Origin: Deltaproteobacteria bacterium
Lineage (GTDB): Bacteria; Myxococcota; Myxococcia; Myxococcales; UBA5297
Direction: 5' to 3'
Assembly (NCBI GenBank): GCA_016218885.1
Contig: JACRCT010000256.1
Coordinates: forward strand, 1 to 55,143
Length of the DNA stretch: 55,143 bases
This document shows, in pieces, positions 3,039-14,142 of this stretch. Below the pieces are notes generated by a model that saw only the letters and a list, made by a program, of their open reading frames with translations, did no database searches and was not told the DNA's origin. Numbering within the stretch: position 1 is the stretch's first letter; each line of letters opens with the position of its first letter. The position numbers were made by a program, and so were the translations under genes.

Positions 3039-3452
3039 CTACTCGTGCCCGGGGCCCTCATCCACCTGTCGAGCCAGGCGCTCCAGCTCCCGCGCCAGCC
3101 CCGCCTTGTCCATCCGCCGCTCAGCGATGGCGATCATCGCCTCGTAGAGCGCTTCCTCGGGATCGACCACCCGGTAGCCGTTGATCCGGAGGAACACCAG
3201 GGCGGCGCCGAGCCCGGTCCGCTTGTTCCCGTCGAGGAAGGGCTGGTTCTCCGCGACGTGGAAGGCGTAGGCCGCCGCCATGGCGAAGATCGACTCGTGG
3301 ACGAACTGACCGCCGAAGGTGGCCCTCGGCATGCCGAGGGCCGACTCCAGCAAGCCCTGGGAGCGGATGCCGAGGGTGCCACCGAACGCCTCGATCTGAC
3401 GCTCGTGCAGCTCCAGCACCTCCTCGAGCTCGAGGAAGTCCGGCTCGGTCAC
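3039..3452 (-). CDS. doc: Doc (death-on-curing) / Fic-fold toxin
   Basis: 137 aa. Doc-type Fic motif region AENQPFLDGNKRTG. Note Gln (CAG, plus coordinates 3243-3245) where the family consensus has His. 4-nt overlap with the upstream antitoxin gene. Confidence 0.8.
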   Translation of the reverse strand: MTEPDFLELEEVLELHERQIEAFGGTLGIRSQGLLESALGMPRATFGGQFVHESIFAMAAAYAFHVAENQPFLDGNKRTGLGAALVFLRINGYRVVDPEEALYEAMIAIAERRMDKAGLARELERLARQVDEGPGHE

Positions 3453-3673
3453 TTGGCGAGCTTCCGGAAGGTCCCGGCGTGGTCGGCCATGACCTCGTCG
3501 ATGGCGCTCCTGACGCGCGCCTTCCGGCCCTTCCGGACCGGCGCGATGATGAGCCGCTCCCCATCGGTCGTCATGTCGAGCTCGGTGTCCTTGGTGAGGT
3601 CGAGCAGCTCCAGGATGGGCTTCTCGATGACGATGCCGAGGCTGTTTCCGATGGCCGAGAGCTTCTTGCGCAT
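3449..3673 (-). CDS. AbrB/MazE/SpoVT-type antitoxin
   Basis: ATG at 3673 preceded by GGAG. MRKKLSAIGNSLGIVIEKPILELLDL is a swapped-hairpin AbrB/MazE-like N-terminus. Stop overlaps the doc start (3449-3452). Confidence 0.75.
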   Translation of the reverse strand: MRKKLSAIGNSLGIVIEKPILELLDLTKDTELDMTTDGERLIIAPVRKGRKARVRSAIDEVMADHAGTFRKLAK

Positions 3674-3756
3674 GGCTGGCTCCGTTCGAACTAACGTATA
3701 ACGAACCAGCCCGATGGGCGCAAGCAAGCGGCGCCGAGTCTCCAGCCCTGAAGGGC

Positions 3757-5454: not shown

Positions 5455-6492
5455 TCACCGCGCGACCACGTCGCGACCTTCTCGGAGCTCCGCCGTGACC
5501 TCCCTCAGATCAAATCGAGCTGACTCGGCTGTGAAGAACCGGAGGCTCTGGGCGGGCTCGCAGACCTTGGTAGCAGCCGACAACACCCTTCCAAGGAGAC
5601 GCTGGCCTCGCCACACCTGGGAAGTGAACTTCGGATCTCCGATGAACACGAAGGGCTCGACTCGAGGCTCGTCCTTCAGGTCAGGAGTCTGCGCGGGGAT
5701 CAATCCAAGCCCACGCTTCTGGTCGATCAGGCGGTTGATGTTCCGAACCAGGTTCGCTCGCTCGCCCGGCGCCTGGAGCGCGCGCGTCCAGAGCGCGGCG
5801 TACCCGCCGACCTGAATGGGCGTCCCGTAGACGCCTTGCTCGTCGCTCCCGTGCTTGGCCTCCATGAGTGCCAGGTCGCCGTCGGGCGTGACGCCGATGA
5901 AGTCGACCCCGCCGCCGCGCGCCTTCTCGAGGCGCCTCTTGCGCCGCCGGAGCGCCGGATCCTCGGTCGCCTCGGAGCTGATCCGCTGCTGGACCTCCTT
6001 CAGCCACACTTTGTCATCGCCAGTCAGCTCCTCGAGCTCGGCTTCGCGGTCGACCGCGATCCATGGAAGGGGTTGCCCCAATGTCGCCAGACGAGCCAGC
6101 CAGCTCTGCCAGCCTCCCTCCTTGTGCCACTGGCGTTCCTTGACCTTGATGGCGCCCAGGAACACGTCCCACTTCAGGACCTTGGCCTCGATCTCGCTGG
6201 CACGGAACGTCCCGTAGACCCCCAGCCGGGTCGCCGGCTCCTGGTCCATGTAGCTGGCGTCGGCCTTGGCCTCCAGCCTGTCGTCGCTCAAGTACTTGAG
6301 CTCGAGGACCTTGGTCAGCCCCGCATAGATGGACACGATGTTGCCGCGTCGAAGCTGCGTGTCGAGCGTGACCCGTGGGTGGTGGTTCACTGACAGGACG
6401 CCTGGAGCGGCGAGGAACCGCCGCAGGACTTCGTGCCCCGCGATCAACCCGAGGAACTTCTCACCCAGCGCACGGTCATATTTGAGTGTCAC
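5455..6492 (-). CDS. PD-(D/E)xK-fold nuclease-like protein (hypothetical)
   Basis: 345 aa. Candidate nuclease core GGGVDFIGVTPDGDLALMEAKHG (D...D-x(n)-E-x-K). Last gene of the 8916-5455 minus-strand operon. Confidence 0.55.
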   Translation of the reverse strand: MTLKYDRALGEKFLGLIAGHEVLRRFLAAPGVLSVNHHPRVTLDTQLRRGNIVSIYAGLTKVLELKYLSDDRLEAKADASYMDQEPATRLGVYGTFRASEIEAKVLKWDVFLGAIKVKERQWHKEGGWQSWLARLATLGQPLPWIAVDREAELEELTGDDKVWLKEVQQRISSEATEDPALRRRKRRLEKARGGGVDFIGVTPDGDLALMEAKHGSDEQGVYGTPIQVGGYAALWTRALQAPGERANLVRNINRLIDQKRGLGLIPAQTPDLKDEPRVEPFVFIGDPKFTSQVWRGQRLLGRVLSAATKVCEPAQSLRFFTAESARFDLREVTAELREGRDVVAR

Positions 6493-6516
6493 TTGGTCTC
6501 TCCCCGAGCCATGCCG

Positions 6517-7761
6517 TCAAACGTCCCACCAGGAACCATCTTGTCTGGTCTCTACCCACGGAAGAGTCGCAGCGTACTTTCCTGGATCGCCCGTGTGGAT
6601 CGGAATCACCCGTACCGGCCGTACCGCGTCCACCAGACGCCGCAGGTCCGTCACATAGGCGTGCCCCGACACGTGGTGCACCTCGAGCGGCACGCCGTGG
6701 CGCGCCAGGACCTGCTGGAGCCGCTGCTCCGCCGGTCCCTCCAGGTACCCCCGCCACATAGACCAGACGGCCAGCGCCCCTGGCAAAGCCCCGGCCTGCT
6801 CCAGTTCCCGTGCCATGGAGGGTCGCTGCATGAGCACCAACTCGCCCGCCCTCGCCGCCAGCTCCTCCGGGAAGACCCGATGCGGATGCACTCGGCGGAC
6901 CCGGCCGAACTCCTTGGCCTCCTTCACCTGGATGCGCTCCCTGCGTCGGCAGTAGACCTCAAGACCATCGACCTCAGGCACGGGAACGCCCGGCGCGCCG
7001 GCGGCGGCCGCCAGGGTGGCCGTGTAGAGGTCCACTACCAGGGTCCGCCCGGCCTCTCGCGCCGCCTCGTAGACCGTCCGCAGCCGGTCCAGGTTCTGCG
7101 AGGACCAGCTGGCCAGCACCAGCCCAGGCCATTCGCGGAATCGCCGGGCGAGCGTGCCGCGCAGGTCGGCCTCGCTCGGCCCCTCGCCCTCGCGGCCGTC
7201 AGCGATCTGGGTCCCCTCCATGAGCAGGGCGTGGACGTCCCGCGGCGGGTCGGCCAGGAGGCGTGCCCAAGGGTCCGAGTCGTTGCCGTGCGCCCGGAAG
7301 TCTCCCGTGTAGAAGAGCCGCCGTCCTTCAGCCTCGACCAGGAGCGCGAAAGCGTCGAGCGCGCTGTGCTCCACCTGATAGGGCGTGATCCGGAAAGGTC
7401 CAACCTCGAACGACTCTCGGTCGCCTAGGGTCCAGGTCGGCTCCGGGAGCGGTGGGCGCCCGGTGAAGAACTCGGCTTCCCGGAGGATGCGCGCGGCCTT
7501 GGCGCCGATTCCCATCGGCAGGCCCGGTCGGGCGGTCGGGATCAGGCCACAGTGGTCCCCGTGCAGGTGCGTGACGAGGACGCCGAGCAGCGACGGGTCC
7601 TCTCCGCGCAGCCCCGCGATGTTCGGGAGCGGGTCCTCCCCCTCCTCCGCGTCGAGCGGCAGGCCGAGGTCGAGCAAGATTCGCTGCCCTCCGGACTCGA
7701 GCTCGACGCAGGTGCCGCCCACCTGGCCGGCGCCGCGGTGGATGCATGCGCGCAGCGTCAC
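6517..7761 (-). CDS. MBL-fold metallo-hydrolase, beta-CASP / RNase J-like
   Basis: 414 aa. HxHxDH motif VTHLHGDHCG, downstream FYTGDFR and LLMEGT, C-terminal VHHVSGHA...IPIHTG. GTG start overlaps the upstream stop (GTGA, 7758-7761). Confidence 0.8.
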   Translation of the reverse strand: MTLRACIHRGAGQVGGTCVELESGGQRILLDLGLPLDAEEGEDPLPNIAGLRGEDPSLLGVLVTHLHGDHCGLIPTARPGLPMGIGAKAARILREAEFFTGRPPLPEPTWTLGDRESFEVGPFRITPYQVEHSALDAFALLVEAEGRRLFYTGDFRAHGNDSDPWARLLADPPRDVHALLMEGTQIADGREGEGPSEADLRGTLARRFREWPGLVLASWSSQNLDRLRTVYEAAREAGRTLVVDLYTATLAAAAGAPGVPVPEVDGLEVYCRRRERIQVKEAKEFGRVRRVHPHRVFPEELAARAGELVLMQRPSMARELEQAGALPGALAVWSMWRGYLEGPAEQRLQQVLARHGVPLEVHHVSGHAYVTDLRRLVDAVRPVRVIPIHTGDPGKYAATLPWVETRQDGSWWDV

Positions 7762-8033
7762 TCGTCCCTCGGTCGCGGAGTTGGTTGCAGGGGGAGCACC
7801 CTTCCGCCCGCTTGCTCTTCAGGAGCAGGGGATACCCCCGGAGCGACCCCGCCGCGCAGGCGGAGCTGGAGCGCGCGGGGGCGAAGCTGTCCCTGGACCT
7901 TGCGGAGATAGGCGCGCAGCTTGGCAGCCACCACATACTCCTCGGCCTGGTTGAGCTGCGCGCAACGCTTCACCTGCGCCCGGTATAGCCGCATGGTGAG
8001 GCGCAGTCGCGCTCGAAGCTGGTCCAGGGTCAC
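7758..8033 (-). CDS. small hypothetical protein (helical N-half)
   Basis: 91-aa ORF with a GTG start. GTGA overlaps at both ends, which argues for real translation. The C-half is low complexity. Confidence 0.35.
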   Translation of the reverse strand: MTLDQLRARLRLTMRLYRAQVKRCAQLNQAEEYVVAAKLRAYLRKVQGQLRPRALQLRLRGGVAPGVSPAPEEQAGGRVLPLQPTPRPRDE

Positions 8034-8209
8034 GCCCGCCCCCGGCTGCTCGGCGGCAATGGCTGGAGCTCGACCGTGAGGAGCAGCGCGCTGTCGGTTC
8101 GGGTCGCGCTCGCGATCACCCAGATCCGCCCGTCCTGCTCGCCCAGCACGTCGCCGACCTCGGGCACCGTCGCCGTCTCCCCGGGCTGGGCGACCGGCTT
8201 GCCGTCCAC
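8030..8209 (-). CDS. possible small protein, start uncertain
   Basis: High third-position G+C in this frame between 8236 and 8030. The only in-frame start after the upstream stop is GTG at 8209. No Shine-Dalgarno sequence seen. Confidence 0.25.
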   Translation of the reverse strand: MDGKPVAQPGETATVPEVGDVLGEQDGRIWVIASATRTDSALLLTVELQPLPPSSRGRA

Positions 8210-8235: not shown

Positions 8236-8916
8236 TCAGCTCACCCAGGGTCCGGCCCCCCTCACGACATCGGGATGATGGATCTGCAGCCAGGTCATGC
8301 GGTACGCGAAGATTGCCATCCCGTCGGCCTGGGCGCGCGGATAGGCGGTCCAGGCGAAGCGCAGCATCGCATGGCTCACCTCCTCGAGGTGGCGCTGATT
8401 GCCTCCACCTTCCTGCGCCGCCGTGAGGAACCGCTGGCGACTCTCCTCCCCCCGCGCCCCGCCCCGCAGCATCTGCCGGCGCCACGCCTCGGCCTGATCG
8501 CGCGAGACCCCCGCGATGATGCCCAGGCAGCGGGCGACCTGGGCGGCGTAGATGGCGAAACCCATGGTCTCGACGAGCGAGTCGTCCACCAGCGGGTGAA
8601 GGGACGGCACTTGGCGGCTACGCCTGCGCTGCAGGTACTCGGTGGCCAGCCCGAGCTCCACGGGTGCCGGGCGGTAGAGCGCCAACGCCGCCGCAAGTTC
8701 GGTCAGGTCTCGGGGCGAAACCTCCTCCACCCATCTGGCCGCATAGGCGCTGAGGAACGGGATGCTCGCCGCCGAGCCGGACGAGATTCCCGAGAAGACT
8801 TCGGGCTCACCGGTGGGCAGGCGGCCCAGGTCGAGGTGGGCCGCCATGGCCGCCTGTTCCAGCCGGCCGTTCATCTCAGCGATAGGGGTGTCGTGCACGG
8901 CCCCCGTTCTCCCCAT
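8236..8916 (-). CDS. DnaE (Pol III alpha) fingers-domain-like fragment, degenerate
   Basis: 226 aa. Collinear with E. coli DnaE as I recall it: ALYRPAPV vs ALFRPGP, GFAIYAAQVARCLGIIAG vs GIILYQEQVMQIAQVLSG, QAEAWRRQM vs ADMLRRAMGKK, AIFAYRMTWLQIHHPDV vs [21 protein letters not shown]. No PHP or palm domain present. Confidence 0.55.
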   Translation of the reverse strand: MGRTGAVHDTPIAEMNGRLEQAAMAAHLDLGRLPTGEPEVFSGISSGSAASIPFLSAYAARWVEEVSPRDLTELAAALALYRPAPVELGLATEYLQRRRSRQVPSLHPLVDDSLVETMGFAIYAAQVARCLGIIAGVSRDQAEAWRRQMLRGGARGEESRQRFLTAAQEGGGNQRHLEEVSHAMLRFAWTAYPRAQADGMAIFAYRMTWLQIHHPDVVRGAGPWVS

Positions 8917-9000
8917 CGAACGGACACAGCCGCGTGCGCCTGCCAGCCAGCCTTGTCCGTCGTCTCGCTAGCCTACATCCACCCACACTGGAGGCTGGCC

Positions 9001-9501
9001 ATGCTGATGACCGATTCGAGGGGCAGGACGTACCGGTGGGACGACCGCCTCACCGAGGCGCTCCGAGAGGTTGAGCGGCAGCTCGCCGAGCGCGAAGGCC
9101 GGCGACCGAGGCGGGATGGGCTCCTCCTCATCGACACGCGGGCACACCCGGACCTTGCTGCCGCCAAGGAGCGCGCGTTCGACGAGGCGGCCGAGCGCTA
9201 CCGGAGCCGGCCACCTCTCCAGGTCAAGACCGGCGACTGGGTGCGGATCGGCGGCTATCGCTTCCGCATCGGCAATGTGAGCGAGAAGAGCGGCCTCGTC
9301 GAGACCGAGCGGGTCGGGCGCGACGGGGCCGTCGTCTCGTCGGTGCCGGCGGACGGGGCCGGACTGGTGTCCGACCCGAGCACGGAGCCCGAGCCGGCAG
9401 ACGGGCTGCGGCCGCCCTACGACATCAAGGAGGCCCACACTCGGGCGCGCTTCTTCCTGAAGGCCCACGAGCGGGCGCTCGGGGACCGCTGGATCGACTG
9501 A
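9001..9501 (+). CDS. hypothetical protein
   Basis: ATG 9001 preceded by GGAGG. 166 aa, the C-terminal part of track ORF 8275..9501. Divergent from the 8916 operon. No motif recognised. Confidence 0.5.
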   Translation: MLMTDSRGRTYRWDDRLTEALREVERQLAEREGRRPRRDGLLLIDTRAHPDLAAAKERAFDEAAERYRSRPPLQVKTGDWVRIGGYRFRIGNVSEKSGLVETERVGRDGAVVSSVPADGAGLVSDPSTEPEPADGLRPPYDIKEAHTRARFFLKAHERALGDRWID

Positions 9502-10231: not shown

Positions 10232-10241
10232 AGCAAGATCG

Positions 10242-10445
10242 ATGACAGCCGAGCCATGGGTGTCCGTTGCAGGAGTTGCCAAGCACCTCGGCGTTGCCAA
10301 GGACTCTGTCTATCGCTGGATTGAGTCGCGCCACCTCCCGGCGCACAAGATCGGCCGCCTTTGGAAATTCAAACTCACCGAGGTTGACGAGTGGGTCCGC
10401 ACCGGGGGCGCCGACACGCTCGACGAGAAGGGGCGAGCTCAGTGA
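10242..10445 (+). CDS. excisionase-family (MerR-like winged) HTH DNA-binding protein
   Basis: 67 aa. WVSVAGVAKHLGVAKDSVYRWIESRHLPAHKIGRLWKFKLTEVDEWV is the classic excisionase/AlpA-type HTH signature. Confidence 0.8.
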   Translation: MTAEPWVSVAGVAKHLGVAKDSVYRWIESRHLPAHKIGRLWKFKLTEVDEWVRTGGADTLDEKGRAQ

Positions 10446-10571: not shown

Positions 10572-11567
10572 ATGGCTCGTGCTGACCTGTTGCTGGATAT
10601 TGTTCGGGCTGGAGCCGAGGGACACCAGGAGCTGTTTCGCAAGACGCTGGAGGCGATGATTGCCGAAGAGAGAGGCAAGCAACACAACCTACTCGCCGAC
10701 CAACTCGCAGCTCACCTTCGGATCAACGGAAGCACCGCACGCCCCACGCGCACCCTGACCGAGCCGATCGGAGATCGGTCCGCGTTTGCCGAGGTGCGAC
10801 CGCGCCGCGACTTGGCGAGCCTCGTACTGCCGACAGTGGTTCGAGAGGCATGCCTCGAACTGGTGGAAGAACACCACCGAGCCGACCTTCTTCGCTCGCA
10901 CGGTCTTGAACCGCGCCACCGGGTTCTCCTGAGTGGCCCCCCCGGCAACGGGAAGACGACGCTCGCCGAAGCGGTTGCGTTCGAATTGGCGGTACCCCTA
11001 TTTGTCGTCCGCTACGAAAGCATTATCGGGAGCTATCTCGGCGAAACCGCGGTGCGGCTGGCCAAGCTCTTTGCCCAGGTACGAACGGAGCGTTGCGTAC
11101 TCTTCTTTGACGAGTTCGATGTAGTCGGCAAGGAGCGGGGCGACGTCCATGAGACTGGCGAGATCAAGCGAGTCGTCAGCTCCCTGCTCTTGCAGGTGGA
11201 CCAGTTGCCTTCTCACGTCGTCGTGATTGCCGCAACGAACCACAGCGAGCTTCTGGACCGTGCAGCTTGGCGCCGGTTTCAGGTGCGGCTGCCGCTACCG
11301 ATACCGACCAAGGAGCAGCGCGTCGAGTGGCTTCGCCAGTTCGAGTCTCGAACGGGCCTCTCGCTTGGACACTCACACGCGAAGCTCGCGAAGTCCCTTG
11401 GCTCCATCAGCTTCGCCGAACTTGAGCTCTTCGCGCTCGACGTTCAGCGCCGCTACGTTCTCGCGCTCCCCGAAGGGGATGTGCTGGCCATCGTGAATCG
11501 CCGACTCCAGCAGTGGAATGCGCGGGTGAAGCCGAAGGCCCCGACCTCGAGGAGGCGCAATGGCTGA
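10572..11567 (+). CDS. ietA: AAA+ ATPase, IetA-like
   Basis: AGGAGGA RBS. Walker A SGPPGNGKTTLA, Walker B VLFFDEFD, sensor-1 VIAATNH. 8-nt overlap with the following S8 peptidase gene. Confidence 0.75.
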   Translation: MARADLLLDIVRAGAEGHQELFRKTLEAMIAEERGKQHNLLADQLAAHLRINGSTARPTRTLTEPIGDRSAFAEVRPRRDLASLVLPTVVREACLELVEEHHRADLLRSHGLEPRHRVLLSGPPGNGKTTLAEAVAFELAVPLFVVRYESIIGSYLGETAVRLAKLFAQVRTERCVLFFDEFDVVGKERGDVHETGEIKRVVSSLLLQVDQLPSHVVVIAATNHSELLDRAAWRRFQVRLPLPIPTKEQRVEWLRQFESRTGLSLGHSHAKLAKSLGSISFAELELFALDVQRRYVLALPEGDVLAIVNRRLQQWNARVKPKAPTSRRRNG

Positions 11568-14142
11568 ACGACCGCTCCTGCTTCTGCCCGAGGCCATTGC
11601 CGCAAGCCGGGCCAACAAAGGTGGCGGTGGTGGAGGTCCGGGGAAGGTCGGCCCAGGTCGCCAACAGGAGCGTCTTGGACCCCGCCTAAACGAACTTGAG
11701 AATGCGCTGGAGAGGAGGCGCGTTCAGCTCCAAGCGGCAGCCTCGGGCATTGTTCCTGAAGATGTGCTGGTTCTGGAGACCGCAGGAACAGTGGAGGAGT
11801 TCGTCAAGGCGGTGAGCCGCATCGAGGGGTTCGAGTTCCTCGTGGAGTACGACGAGCAGGACATTCCGCCCGACGAGGACTTCTTCACCGACAAGAAGGG
11901 CGCACACATTGCGTACACCGGGCGCGTTTACATGGTGTTCGCCAACCAGGACGCCTTTCGGCAACTGCAGCGTCTGTGGAAGCTCTTTCAGAACGGTGAG
12001 GATTTCGAGCGTGGTCTCACAAAGTGGCGCGATGTCTTCGCGCTCCTTCGTGACATCCGCACGTGGAGCGTGAAGGACCGCCTCGAGGAAACTGGCGTCC
12101 TGACGGACTGGGCCGAGCGCGTTCAGTTCGGTGCCGAGAACGTGCACTGCGAGATCGAACTCTGGTTCCGCTCGAACGACCAGCGACGCCAAGAGGCATC
12201 GCAGGTGGTTCGCGCGCGCGTGCAGGAACTCGGCGGAGCAGTTCTCGCCGAAGGCATTGTTCCCGGCATCCACTATCATGGACTCGCCGTGCAGCTCCCG
12301 ATTCAAGCCGTGCAACAAGTCCTGAACACGCACACGCGTGACCAGGTCCAACTCCTCCAGAGCGAGCAAGTTCAGTTCTTCCGCGCTGCGGGGCAGATGG
12401 CGGTTCGAACCCCGGGGGATCGAGTCCCATCAACGACCGCATTCACCGGCCCTCGACCTGCCGGCCCGGCGCGCGTCGCGCTGCTTGATGGCCTTCCACT
12501 CCAGAACCATGCGGCGCTGACGAACCGCCTGATCGTCGATGACCCCGACAATTTCGAAGCCAACTACCGTGCCGACGCTCGCGCCCACGGAACAGGCATG
12601 GCCTCGCTCATCGTCTGGGGCGACCTCAACGCCTCTGACCCGCTGCCGATTCCACAGCCGCTGTATGTGCGGCCCATCATGCAACCGGTCTTCCCTCCGT
12701 CGTGGGCGAATCAAGAGCCATTCGAGTGCGTGCCCGAGGGGACGCTCGTCGTCGATCTCGTTCACCGGTCGGTTCGTCGGCTGTACGAAGCGGAGGGGAA
12801 TGCCGCTCCGGCGGCGCCCGAGATCAGCCTCGTAAACTTCTCAATCGGGATCCGCGACCGGCCATTCTCTAACACGCTGAGCCCTCTCGCGCGGCTACTC
12901 GACTGGTTGTCATGGAACCATAGGGTCCTGTTCCTCGTGAGCGCCGGCAACCATCTGCACGAAGTCGACACTGGCAAGCCGTGGTCCGAAGTGCAGGCTC
13001 TTGCGCCCACAGAACTTTCGGCCGTGATCCTTCAGTCGTTGGCAGCGGACACCCGGAATCGTCGAGCACTCTCACCCGCTGAATCGATGAATGCCCTCAC
13101 CGTGGGCGCCCTCCACGCCGATTCCGACACCGCGAGTCACGCGACAACCCGACTAGACCCCATGCTCGTGGGTTACCCGAGTCCGCTCAATGCTCACGGC
13201 CTCGGCTACCGTAGGTCAGTCAAACCCGACCTCCTCGTGCCCGGAGGGCGTCTCCAATTCGATCGCCCTATTCAGGATCAGCAGACGCGGCTTCGACCCG
13301 TTCGCGTCGAAACGTCGCCTGGCGTCAAGGTGGCGGCGCCCGGCCCCCTCGCCGGCGACGTCACACACACGGTCAAGTCCAGAGGCACCAGCAACGCAAC
13401 GGCGCGCCTAAGCCGCATGGGCGCGTTCTTGGCCCCCGTCCTCACCGAGATCAGGCAAGGCGCGGGCGGCAACGCGCTGGCGGTGGTTCCTGATGCGGTA
13501 GTCCTAAAGGCGCTGCTCGCCCATGGTGCCCGCTGGGGCGACCTGGGCCCTGCGCTCCACGGCCACTTTGAGACGATTGAGAACGCCGACAAGCGCACGG
13601 AGCAGGTCACGCGGCTGTTGGGCTTCGGGCGACTTGAGGTCGACGATGTTGCTGAGTGCTCGCCCACTCGTGTCACCGGGATCGGAGGCGGAACGCTGGC
13701 CGCCGACGGTGGTGCTGAGCACCGCTTCCCGCTGCCACCGTCCCTGAGCGGCAAGCGCGGTTGGCGACGGCTCACCGTTACGCTTGCCTGGTTCACACCG
13801 GTGAATCCACTCAGCCACAAGTGGCGCAAGGCGCAACTCTGGTTCGAAACGCCGAGGTCGAAGCTCAAGGTGAACCGCGTCGGACCCGACTGGCAGACAG
13901 CGCAAAGAGGAACGCTCCAGCATGAAGCATTCGAGGGCGAGGCGGCTGCAGCGTTCGTGGACGGAGATGATATCGTGGTTCGCGTGAGTTGCCGCGAAGA
14001 TGCTCCGGGCCTCGAGGGCTCGGTGCCTTATGCAGTCGCGGTTTCGCTCGAAGTCGCCCAGGACATTGGCGTCGACATCTACACGGAGGTCCGCGAGCGA
14101 GTGAGTCAGCGCCTGCAAGTTCAAGCTGGCGCCGCGCCCTAG
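11560..14142 (+). CDS. ietS: S8 (subtilisin-like) serine peptidase, IetS-like
   Basis: 860 aa. Catalytic triad contexts VALLDGLP (Asp), AHGTGMASL (His), VSAGN (oxyanion Asn), SRGTSNATA (Ser). Confidence 0.8.
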   Translation: MAERPLLLLPEAIAASRANKGGGGGGPGKVGPGRQQERLGPRLNELENALERRRVQLQAAASGIVPEDVLVLETAGTVEEFVKAVSRIEGFEFLVEYDEQDIPPDEDFFTDKKGAHIAYTGRVYMVFANQDAFRQLQRLWKLFQNGEDFERGLTKWRDVFALLRDIRTWSVKDRLEETGVLTDWAERVQFGAENVHCEIELWFRSNDQRRQEASQVVRARVQELGGAVLAEGIVPGIHYHGLAVQLPIQAVQQVLNTHTRDQVQLLQSEQVQFFRAAGQMAVRTPGDRVPSTTAFTGPRPAGPARVALLDGLPLQNHAALTNRLIVDDPDNFEANYRADARAHGTGMASLIVWGDLNASDPLPIPQPLYVRPIMQPVFPPSWANQEPFECVPEGTLVVDLVHRSVRRLYEAEGNAAPAAPEISLVNFSIGIRDRPFSNTLSPLARLLDWLSWNHRVLFLVSAGNHLHEVDTGKPWSEVQALAPTELSAVILQSLAADTRNRRALSPAESMNALTVGALHADSDTASHATTRLDPMLVGYPSPLNAHGLGYRRSVKPDLLVPGGRLQFDRPIQDQQTRLRPVRVETSPGVKVAAPGPLAGDVTHTVKSRGTSNATARLSRMGAFLAPVLTEIRQGAGGNALAVVPDAVVLKALLAHGARWGDLGPALHGHFETIENADKRTEQVTRLLGFGRLEVDDVAECSPTRVTGIGGGTLAADGGAEHRFPLPPSLSGKRGWRRLTVTLAWFTPVNPLSHKWRKAQLWFETPRSKLKVNRVGPDWQTAQRGTLQHEAFEGEAAAAFVDGDDIVVRVSCREDAPGLEGSVPYAVAVSLEVAQDIGVDIYTEVRERVSQRLQVQAGAAP

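Follow-up and report, generated by a model that had tools for sequence, protein, structure and literature searches.

Genes and features at the locus

We analysed a stretch of 55,143 nucleotides of DNA (hereafter the window), comprising positions 1 to 55,143 of contig JACRCT010000256.1 in GenBank assembly GCA_016218885.1, a metagenome-assembled genome (MAG) of a deltaproteobacterium of the order Myxococcales. The subject is a short open reading frame (ORF) on the minus strand, the first gene of a candidate five-gene operon, whose product corresponds to the fingers region of the alpha subunit of DNA polymerase III (Pol III alpha, the product of dnaE). We call it the fingers ORF. It is compared below with short DnaE-derived proteins lacking a catalytic motif, here named mini-DnaEs, in which a stub of the palm domain and a linker precede the fingers. 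The following features bear directly on its origin.

8236..8916, minus strand: the fingers ORF, 226 amino acids (aa), restricted to the middle and index fingers of Pol III alpha; its motifs are degenerate
8968..8970, minus strand: a TAG stop codon in frame with the fingers ORF, dividing it from the relic upstream
8971..9093, minus strand: a mini-DnaE linker relic, ALGELPLNLSERLGEAVVPPVRPAPRIGHQHGQPPVWVDVG, 41 codons, collinear and in frame with the fingers ORF
9001..9501, plus strand: a divergently oriented gene of 166 aa, called as a gene by the Logan caller and lying where the palm stub would be

The GTG codon at 8898 is the start favoured by two gene callers and gives a protein of 220 aa. 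A GGAG-like sequence precedes the start codon. Neither stops nor frameshifts occur within the 226 codons, and the codon-usage log-ratio of +0.215 per codon is similar to that of real genes (the ratio is positive in 16 of the 16 control genes).

The same locus is present in a second, independent assembly of run SRR12113407 with 99.98% identity over 9.3 kb, which shows that the arrangement did not arise in assembly. The two sequences differ at two positions, 1989 and 8543, so the second assembly has the same TAG. Position 8543 (2724 in the second sequence, L031) is the sole internal difference over the 9.3 kb. It is non-synonymous and falls within the degenerate YQEQ motif, which reads YAAQ in the window and YADQ in the second assembly.

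A degenerate fingers module of Pol III alpha

The Pfam family PF17657 (DNA_pol3_finger) matches residues 25-169 of the fingers ORF with E 6.2e-21 and 74.9 bits against a cut-off of 22. The match covers profile positions 17-164 of 166 and is collinear. In phmmer searches against the PDB, the ORF matches residues 633-837 of Taq Pol III alpha (E 2e-14) and aligns collinearly with residues 583-780 of the Escherichia coli alpha subunit, the segment that makes up the middle and index fingers. The best NCBIfam model is that of DnaE1, PRK05673, at positions 579-772 of 1146. The AlphaFold model of the ORF has a predicted local distance difference test score (pLDDT) of 74.6 and a predicted template modelling score (pTM) of 0.69. 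In a Foldseek search of the PDB this model retrieved Pol III alpha structures only, with template modelling (TM) scores of 0.71-0.77 and a root-mean-square deviation of about 2.5 A over about 193 residues; in a library of viral structures it matched only phage polymerases of the DnaE type. The initial annotation, made from the letters and their translations, had described an intact ORF collinear with the DnaE fingers segment, and the profile and the fold both bear this out. It had proposed a check against PF07733, the palm family; that family has no match in the ORF in the Pfam search, and the significant match to Pol III alpha is that of PF17657.

The signature motifs are replaced: YQEQ by YAAQ, FNKSHS by YPRAQA and GVFQLES by SIP-FLS. 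The first two replacements had been noted in the initial annotation, and the alignments agree. The ORF keeps 25 of the 44 DnaE columns that are conserved at 80% or more, compared with a median of 41 and a 5th percentile of 34 in a background of 150 DnaE-type sequences. Judged by the motifs GVFQLES, YQEQ and FNKSH it is not a functional fingers module; judged by the score, coverage and fold of PF17657 it is a homologous domain. The ALYRP, HP and ET-G motifs are retained, as are the tyrosine and the last glutamine of YQEQ. The arginine pair equivalent to R709 and R710 of E. coli is also kept, while K758 is replaced by arginine (numbering from the phmmer alignment); these three residues presumably help to bind the incoming nucleotide. 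In net charge the module does not stand out. Its C-terminus coincides with a boundary at which many truncated DnaE-like proteins end. On these alignments, the fingers ORF is a degenerate and, by its motifs, polymerase-dead DnaE fingers module.

No other part of the polymerase was observed. A hidden Markov model (HMM) of full-length DnaE, searched against the six translated frames of the window, matches the fingers ORF only (HMM positions 561-761 of 1121), and therefore the window contains no relic of the PHP, palm, HhH or OB domains. A catalytic palm with the aspartate triad (PDxDxD and a third aspartate) is absent from the ORF and from all six frames elsewhere in the window. The PHP domain, the thumb, the HhH/clamp-binding region and the OB fold have no match in the ORF with Pfam, NCBIfam or the DnaE HMM. 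The earlier statement that the PHP, palm, beta-binding and OB domains are missing thus holds for the whole window. As far as its sequence allows prediction, the fingers protein cannot polymerise DNA.

Probable truncation of a mini-DnaE gene

The relative that does most to clarify the origin of the fingers ORF came from a metagenome scan with an alignment of the beta-CASP metallo-beta-lactamase-fold (MBL) nuclease encoded in the same operon. It produced 30 loci, among them L035, on a 156-kb contig, with the following gene order.

L035: a 421-aa mini-DnaE, then a homologue of the small protein encoded next to the fingers ORF (42%), then the MBL nuclease (69% identity), then a 332-aa protein with a D...EVK motif

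The 421-aa ORF matches PF07733 at positions 2-97, which is the N-terminal stub of the palm, and PF17657 at positions 17-161. No PDxDxD catalytic motif follows its FERFLEP. The motif is likewise absent from P0092 (L022 8001-9233), a protein of 410 aa with the architecture of the L035 mini-DnaE, encoded in another island. Intact members of the family are thus 410-421 aa long, carry a palm stub (PF07733 positions 2-99), then a linker that varies between members, then the degenerate fingers, and end after the HYP motif. The stub amounts to about the first 100 residues of the palm, with its NTP-binding part but not the catalytic aspartates.

The fingers ORF and the L035 protein share residues that are rare in DnaE: RPAP for RPGP and D at column 684 (background frequency 0.01 each) and AYP for GFN (0.03). 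They also share the operon position, the order being DnaE-like gene, small gene, MBL gene. The fingers ORF lacks the stub that intact members have together with linker and fingers in one ORF of 410-421 aa, and we regard it as a truncated derivative, not an intact member, of the mini-DnaE family as defined here. In both FastTree and IQ-TREE trees its nearest neighbour is P0092, with moderate support. The initial annotation had suggested a phylogeny with dnaE and dnaE2 that would tell a recent fragment from an old exapted family. By its low identity to the host DnaE (about 26-28%) the ORF is not a recent fragment of the host gene, and no fingers-only family was found in the homologue searches.

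The main evidence for truncation lies immediately upstream. In a tblastn comparison of the L035 mini-DnaE with the window, the alignment does not stop at the ATG of the fingers ORF but extends in frame -1 from 8916 to 9093, through the TAG. The relic aligned with residues 130-225 of L035 has a Smith-Waterman score of 64 (z 8.2; equalled in 0 of 2000 shuffles) and 41% identity. Its similarity to the linker of P0092 is weaker (z 3.8). Upstream of 9109, the next 120 codons have no similarity to L035 (z -0.2). The structure is that of a truncated gene: the in-frame TAG at 8968-8970 and the relic at 8971-9093 lie outside the present ORF, which restarts 17 codons after the stop. The description of the ORF as a free-standing fragment calls for correction, as the stop and the relic, which the initial annotation does not mention, mark it as the remainder of a longer gene. 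The fingers ORF is probably the 3' 55-60% of a dead mini-DnaE of roughly 410-420 aa, and was not originally free-standing. On the simplest reading of the alignments, an ancestral mini-DnaE of the L035 type would have lost its palm stub by a rearrangement at about position 9100.

The place of the stub is taken by the plus-strand gene. Its product has no Pfam, PADLOC or NCBIfam family at the family cut-offs. The minus frame at 8971-9468 has a codon-usage log-ratio of -0.263 per codon, which favours the plus strand, and therefore the plus-strand gene is the coding one there. Its first codons overlap the relic; indeed, the first thirty or so seem to have been formed from the antisense strand of the relic (window 8971-9108).

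Two other explanations of these features were considered and rejected. The similarity of the relic is not a by-product of a conserved antisense gene, as the plus-strand protein has no significant match in any frame of L035 (z <=2.0). That a frameshift fuses the fingers gene to the small gene is contradicted by L021 and L035, in both of which the small gene is separate.

Several other DnaE-like proteins were observed. The island of P0092 in L022 contains a GTPase, an HTH_3 protein and proteins with the Pfam domains MC2 and CTD6, and these operon partners are unlike those in the window. P0110 (L013 741-1415) is a fingers-only protein of 224 aa with degenerate motifs; its gene adjoins that of a NERD-UvrD-type helicase, and its N-terminus, RRQALASGFGAMVLPFGPSC, resembles a twin-arginine or lipoprotein signal. 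P0004 (L014 1908-4295), of 795 aa, has two degenerate fingers modules split by an HHH_6 domain and neither palm nor PHP. In a MAG of the Lachnospiraceae (L063 5001-6116), a compact DnaE-like match of about 372 codons covers residues 20-415 of the L035 mini-DnaE with 23% identity, and may represent another mini-DnaE lineage. P0049 and P0021 are on short contigs and are uninformative.

The operon and the defence island

The genes downstream of the fingers ORF, and those flanking the operon, are as follows.

8030..8209, minus strand: the small protein, 59 aa, beta-rich, second gene of the operon, without a PADLOC model
7758..8033, minus strand: p91, a helical protein of 91 aa, or of 78 aa if it starts at the ATG at 7994 (Logan caller)
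6517..7761, minus strand: the beta-CASP MBL nuclease, RNase J-like, 414 aa, with Pfam domains Lactamase_B_2 and RMMBL and a match to TIGR00649
5455..6492, minus strand: p345, a PD-(D/E)xK-like protein of 345 aa, with an invariant D197...E211-x-K213 motif in its alignment
3039-3727: a Fic/MazE-type pair, flanking the operon
10239-10445: an HTH_17 gene
10572-14142: IetA and IetS, flanking the operon
from 14149: BREX genes, flanking the operon

Five genes on the same strand are tightly packed, and the operon that contains the fingers ORF lies within a defence island. The description of the ORF as the first gene of a coupled operon needs some qualification. The tight packing stands; on the other hand, a gap of 26 nucleotides follows the fingers ORF, and the GTGA overlaps between genes depend on the choice of start codons, the Logan caller placing the start of p91 later. 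The association of the ORF with this operon, also proposed initially, is backed by the second, diverged locus L035, where a DnaE-derived gene is likewise followed by the small gene and the MBL gene. Scans for promoters, terminators, repeats, tRNAs and Rfam families yielded nothing informative.

Homologues of the downstream genes are found at related loci. In L021 (43% identity) and L035 (42%, E 1e-8) the gene immediately before the MBL gene encodes a homologue of the small protein; the alignment of this protein is too variable for use as a scan query. Homologues of p91 (37% over 67 aa) occupy the same position in L038 and L040. The MBL nuclease matches RNase J in the PDB (E 2e-17), and TIGR00649 is the RNase J family of NCBIfam; its homologues are 69-82% identical in at least 9 other loci. 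In L017, L021 and L027 the MBL gene is followed by a homologue of p345. For p345 itself there is no family match in Pfam, PADLOC or NCBIfam and no profile match in the PDB, and its structure model (pLDDT 52.8) is too poor for a fold search. Searching genomes with p345 returned no related loci. In PADLOC-DB 2.0 the fingers, small, MBL and p345 proteins are unmatched, and p91 has a match to ZorG at chance level (E 0.0065).

The MBL and p345 genes form a conserved pair that is tightly coupled to very different upstream genes.

L017: a McrBC-like pair upstream
G042: a WYL regulator and two small genes upstream
L021: a small-protein homologue alone upstream
Anaeromyxobacteraceae MAG: the MBL gene with a truncated partner, beside an IS3 element

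No DnaE-like ORF was found at the MBL loci of L017, G042, L021 or the Anaeromyxobacteraceae MAG. A cassette of the MBL gene and a fast-evolving PD-(D/E)xK gene was observed in the window (5455-7761, minus strand), in L017, in L021/L034, in L027, in L015, in L035-L038 and in L040. PADLOC has no model for this two-gene cassette, which we regard as a candidate defence module by itself.

Two further observations concern neighbours of MBL genes. The MBL homologue of L045 (5001-10806) is a distant one (35% identity), and 0.9 kb downstream of it, on the same strand, lies a full-length dnaE; the arrangement may be coincidental, or it may hint at an older linkage between MBL and dnaE genes. Near the operon of L035 (8342-10826, minus strand) there are pairs of genes for a MoxR-type AAA+ protein (bpMoxR family) and a vWA protein.

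Remnant or functional protein

Several points weigh against the interpretation of the fingers ORF as a truncated mini-DnaE from an optional first gene of this operon. Support for the trees in which the degenerate sequences group together is moderate, and long-branch attraction could account for the grouping. The family is very small, and its members are highly divergent, with 27-30% identity to one another. The relic overlaps the 5' end of the well-coded plus-strand gene, which possibly aided its preservation and so blurs the age of the truncation. Only the window and L035 tie a DnaE-derived gene to the operon; at about eight others where the MBL homologue is close, the upstream genes are different or absent, from which it follows that the mini-DnaE is dispensable for the nuclease pair. 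Finally, it is pure inference that the mini-DnaE of an intact operon is probably a non-catalytic recognition or adaptor subunit.

If the fingers ORF is a truncated mini-DnaE, it may be a non-functional remnant or it may encode a fingers-only subunit that is still made and useful; the two possibilities are about evenly balanced. A remnant is favoured by the fact that the relic can still be recognised, by the lack of the gene at most MBL loci and by the non-synonymous difference at 8543. A working minimal form is favoured by the usable start codon, by ORF ends that coincide with the domain, by the place in front of an intact operon and by the fingers-only protein P0110. Neutral decay of a canonical dnaE is a separate matter. 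When a host-like fingers gene was allowed to drift in simulations to 25.5% identity, 2% of the runs remained stop-free. Hydrophobic residues are kept in the fingers ORF at a fraction of 0.84 of the 64 core columns, compared with 0.535 +/- 0.059 and a maximum of 0.73 under drift. With no stops or frameshifts and a core hydrophobicity of 0.84, the ORF does not look like a decaying canonical dnaE pseudogene, and by these sequence measures it is not the product of neutral decay from canonical DnaE. The codon-position G+C periodicity was rejected as evidence against decay, as simulated drift gives the same pattern (0.67/0.55/0.82).

The same measures were compared between the fingers ORF and the intact L035 member. 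Each keeps 26 of 46 conserved columns, and the core hydrophobicity is 0.84 and 0.87, respectively. Being equally degenerate, the fingers ORF gives no sign of extra decay, which fits either a recent truncation or continued selection. The constraint on the core could date from the time when the gene was whole.

The possibility that the fingers ORF is a pseudogene remnant without function, kept open by the recency of the truncation and the rarity of stops in DNA of 70% G+C, falls only slightly short of an even chance. In its favour, the gene has lost its N-terminal 40% and carries an in-frame TAG, and the 41% identity that the relic retains to L035 points to a young event. Long spurious ORFs are numerous in the region, and the G+C periodicity does not discriminate. 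The loci with the MBL and PD-(D/E)xK genes mostly have no DnaE-like gene, and the sole internal single-nucleotide difference between the two assemblies over 9.3 kb is non-synonymous and falls in this ORF. However, the degeneracy is no greater than in the intact L035 member, 226 codons are free of frameshifts and stops, a usable start codon follows the TAG, and, if the promoter is upstream, the ORF would be co-transcribed with intact downstream genes. The initial annotation had taken the open frame as an argument against a simple pseudogene. The frame is indeed open, but this evidence is weak given the in-frame TAG and the linker relic upstream.

A selected, free-standing fingers-only protein, serving as an adaptor, or as a decoy for or sensor of phage proteins directed at host Pol III alpha, is a rather unlikely alternative with several features in its favour; the relic upstream would then be history without relevance to the present gene. 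The ends of the ORF match the fingers module, the start codon has the GGAG-like sequence upstream, and the C-terminus is at the boundary common among truncated DnaE-like proteins. The core hydrophobicity is kept, another fingers-only protein exists (P0110, 224 aa), and the ORF heads an otherwise intact operon in a defence island. No phage protein known to us has the middle or index finger as its binding site. Literature searches on decoy or free-standing fingers proteins found no such work, and the TAG and the linker relic indicate recent membership of a longer gene.

Homologue searches also argue against a free-standing protein. An HMMER search of 1.84 billion representatives gave 6724 matches, of which the query alone is below E 1e-30; the next best is a full-length DnaE with 35% identity. 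In a word-indexed search of 5.8 billion clusters the only homologue of similar length is the query itself, and a profile of five degenerate fingers sequences again retrieved only the query. An exact look-up of the fingers protein matched no contig. Among about 15 billion proteins no close relative was found except the same locus in the second assembly. No short copy of DnaE occurs in 60 relatives of the host. Nearly all of 400 genomes of the phylum have one or two PF17657 matches, in a scan that lists the top canonical matches and does not display short frames. A scan with the L035 mini-DnaE returns mainly canonical DnaEs. In sum, no family of free-standing fingers proteins was found in the homologue searches.

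A recent origin from the dnaE or dnaE2 of the host itself is effectively refuted, so far as the sequences compared can tell. The genome (8.7 Mb in 1290 contigs) has a full dnaE on contig C779. A second dnaE-like gene, probably dnaE2 (contig C1009 2937-3578, L032), is cut off where its 3.6-kb contig ends; the fingers region of this gene is unassembled and thus missing from the comparison, which is the one point in favour of this origin. These two genes are the only other PF07733 matches in the genome. The fingers ORF is only 25.5-28% identical to the host DnaE1; it is not a decaying copy of the host gene, and on this point the initial annotation was right. The identity to all DnaE1 and DnaE2 proteins of the 60 relatives, which include members of the same genus, is 23-30%, and the best match anywhere has 35%.

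Finally, it is extremely improbable that the ORF encodes one half of an active minimal Pol III alpha whose gene is split, although such split genes exist in group 2.2 jumbo phages (PMC7824862), as there is no catalytic palm in the ORF, in the window or in an extra gene of the genome (the other PF07733 matches being dnaE and the contig-end dnaE2), and L035 and P0092 also lack PDxDxD.

Possible role of mini-DnaEs

Returning to the truncated mini-DnaE, we propose the following scheme. The mini-DnaE family would be an optional leading gene of a defence-island operon that further encodes the small protein, the beta-CASP MBL nuclease and the PD-(D/E)xK-like protein. In the window a rearrangement would have removed the palm stub, leaving 41 linker codons, the in-frame TAG and a fingers ORF of 220-226 codons. 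The ligand of the mini-DnaE in an intact operon may be template or primer-template DNA, a nucleotide or a partner protein, bound through the template- and nucleotide-binding surface of the fingers. The mini-DnaE would then direct or license the beta-CASP and PD-(D/E)xK nucleases on foreign replicating DNA. The copy in the window would be a reduced, possibly crippled version. The decoy idea is a special case of the recognition role, and nothing here supports a decoy.

A bolder and rather doubtful extension is that dead mini-DnaEs, whether made of palm stub and fingers or of the fingers only, are exchangeable sensor subunits of an undescribed anti-phage system composed of the mini-DnaE, the small protein, the beta-CASP MBL nuclease and the PD-(D/E)xK protein. 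They would sense replication intermediates, or phage factors aimed at the host replicase, and unleash the nucleases, and the fingers-only form seen here would be a working minimal version.

If the mini-DnaE is indeed a subunit of a nuclease system, a part of the replisome has been re-used for recognition in defence, and the mini-DnaE operon offers a lead to a candidate new defence system. A more general lesson is that, in DNA of high G+C content, an intact ORF with ends that coincide exactly with a domain can be the stump of a longer gene. In the present case this status was revealed only by a diverged syntenic relative.

Comparison with known systems

The fold of the fingers ORF is the same as that of the fingers of DnaE1 and Pol III alpha (PDB 2HNH, 2HPI, 3E0D, 5FKV). 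It differs from these proteins in the absence of the PHP domain, palm, thumb, ring and little fingers, HhH, OB and tau-binding parts, and in the loss of GVFQLES and FNKSH, and its identity to any DnaE is 25-35%.

Pseudo-enzymes derived from polymerases are known from the Y family. ImuB is a full-length, catalytically dead Y-family scaffold that works with DnaE2 in translesion synthesis. The mini-DnaEs resemble it in that a polymerase-derived protein has been kept without its catalytic residues, presumably for binding. The difference is that ImuB has no link to nucleases or defence islands. It is mentioned in a survey of bacterial polymerases (PMC12926913), which dropped fragments under 200 residues and truncated sequences. 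For the C family, no description of domain-stripped dead derivatives in operons of the immune type was found. Literature searches aimed at DnaE derivatives with a defence role, whether dead, free-standing or decoys, returned no description either, and a search under the name of the Pfam family gave no relevant paper. On these searches the mini-DnaE family is undescribed, whereas polymerase-derived pseudo-enzymes as such are already known, and the copy in the window is probably a damaged example of one.

Among published cases, the closest is the split minimal Pol III alpha found in jumbo phages of group 2.2 (Iyer et al. 2021, PMC7824862). As in the window, pieces of the enzyme without accessory domains are encoded by separate small genes. 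However, the pieces in the phages contain the part that binds Mg2+ and are predicted to reconstitute an active enzyme (PMC7824862), whereas the fingers ORF has neither a catalytic part nor a partner gene.

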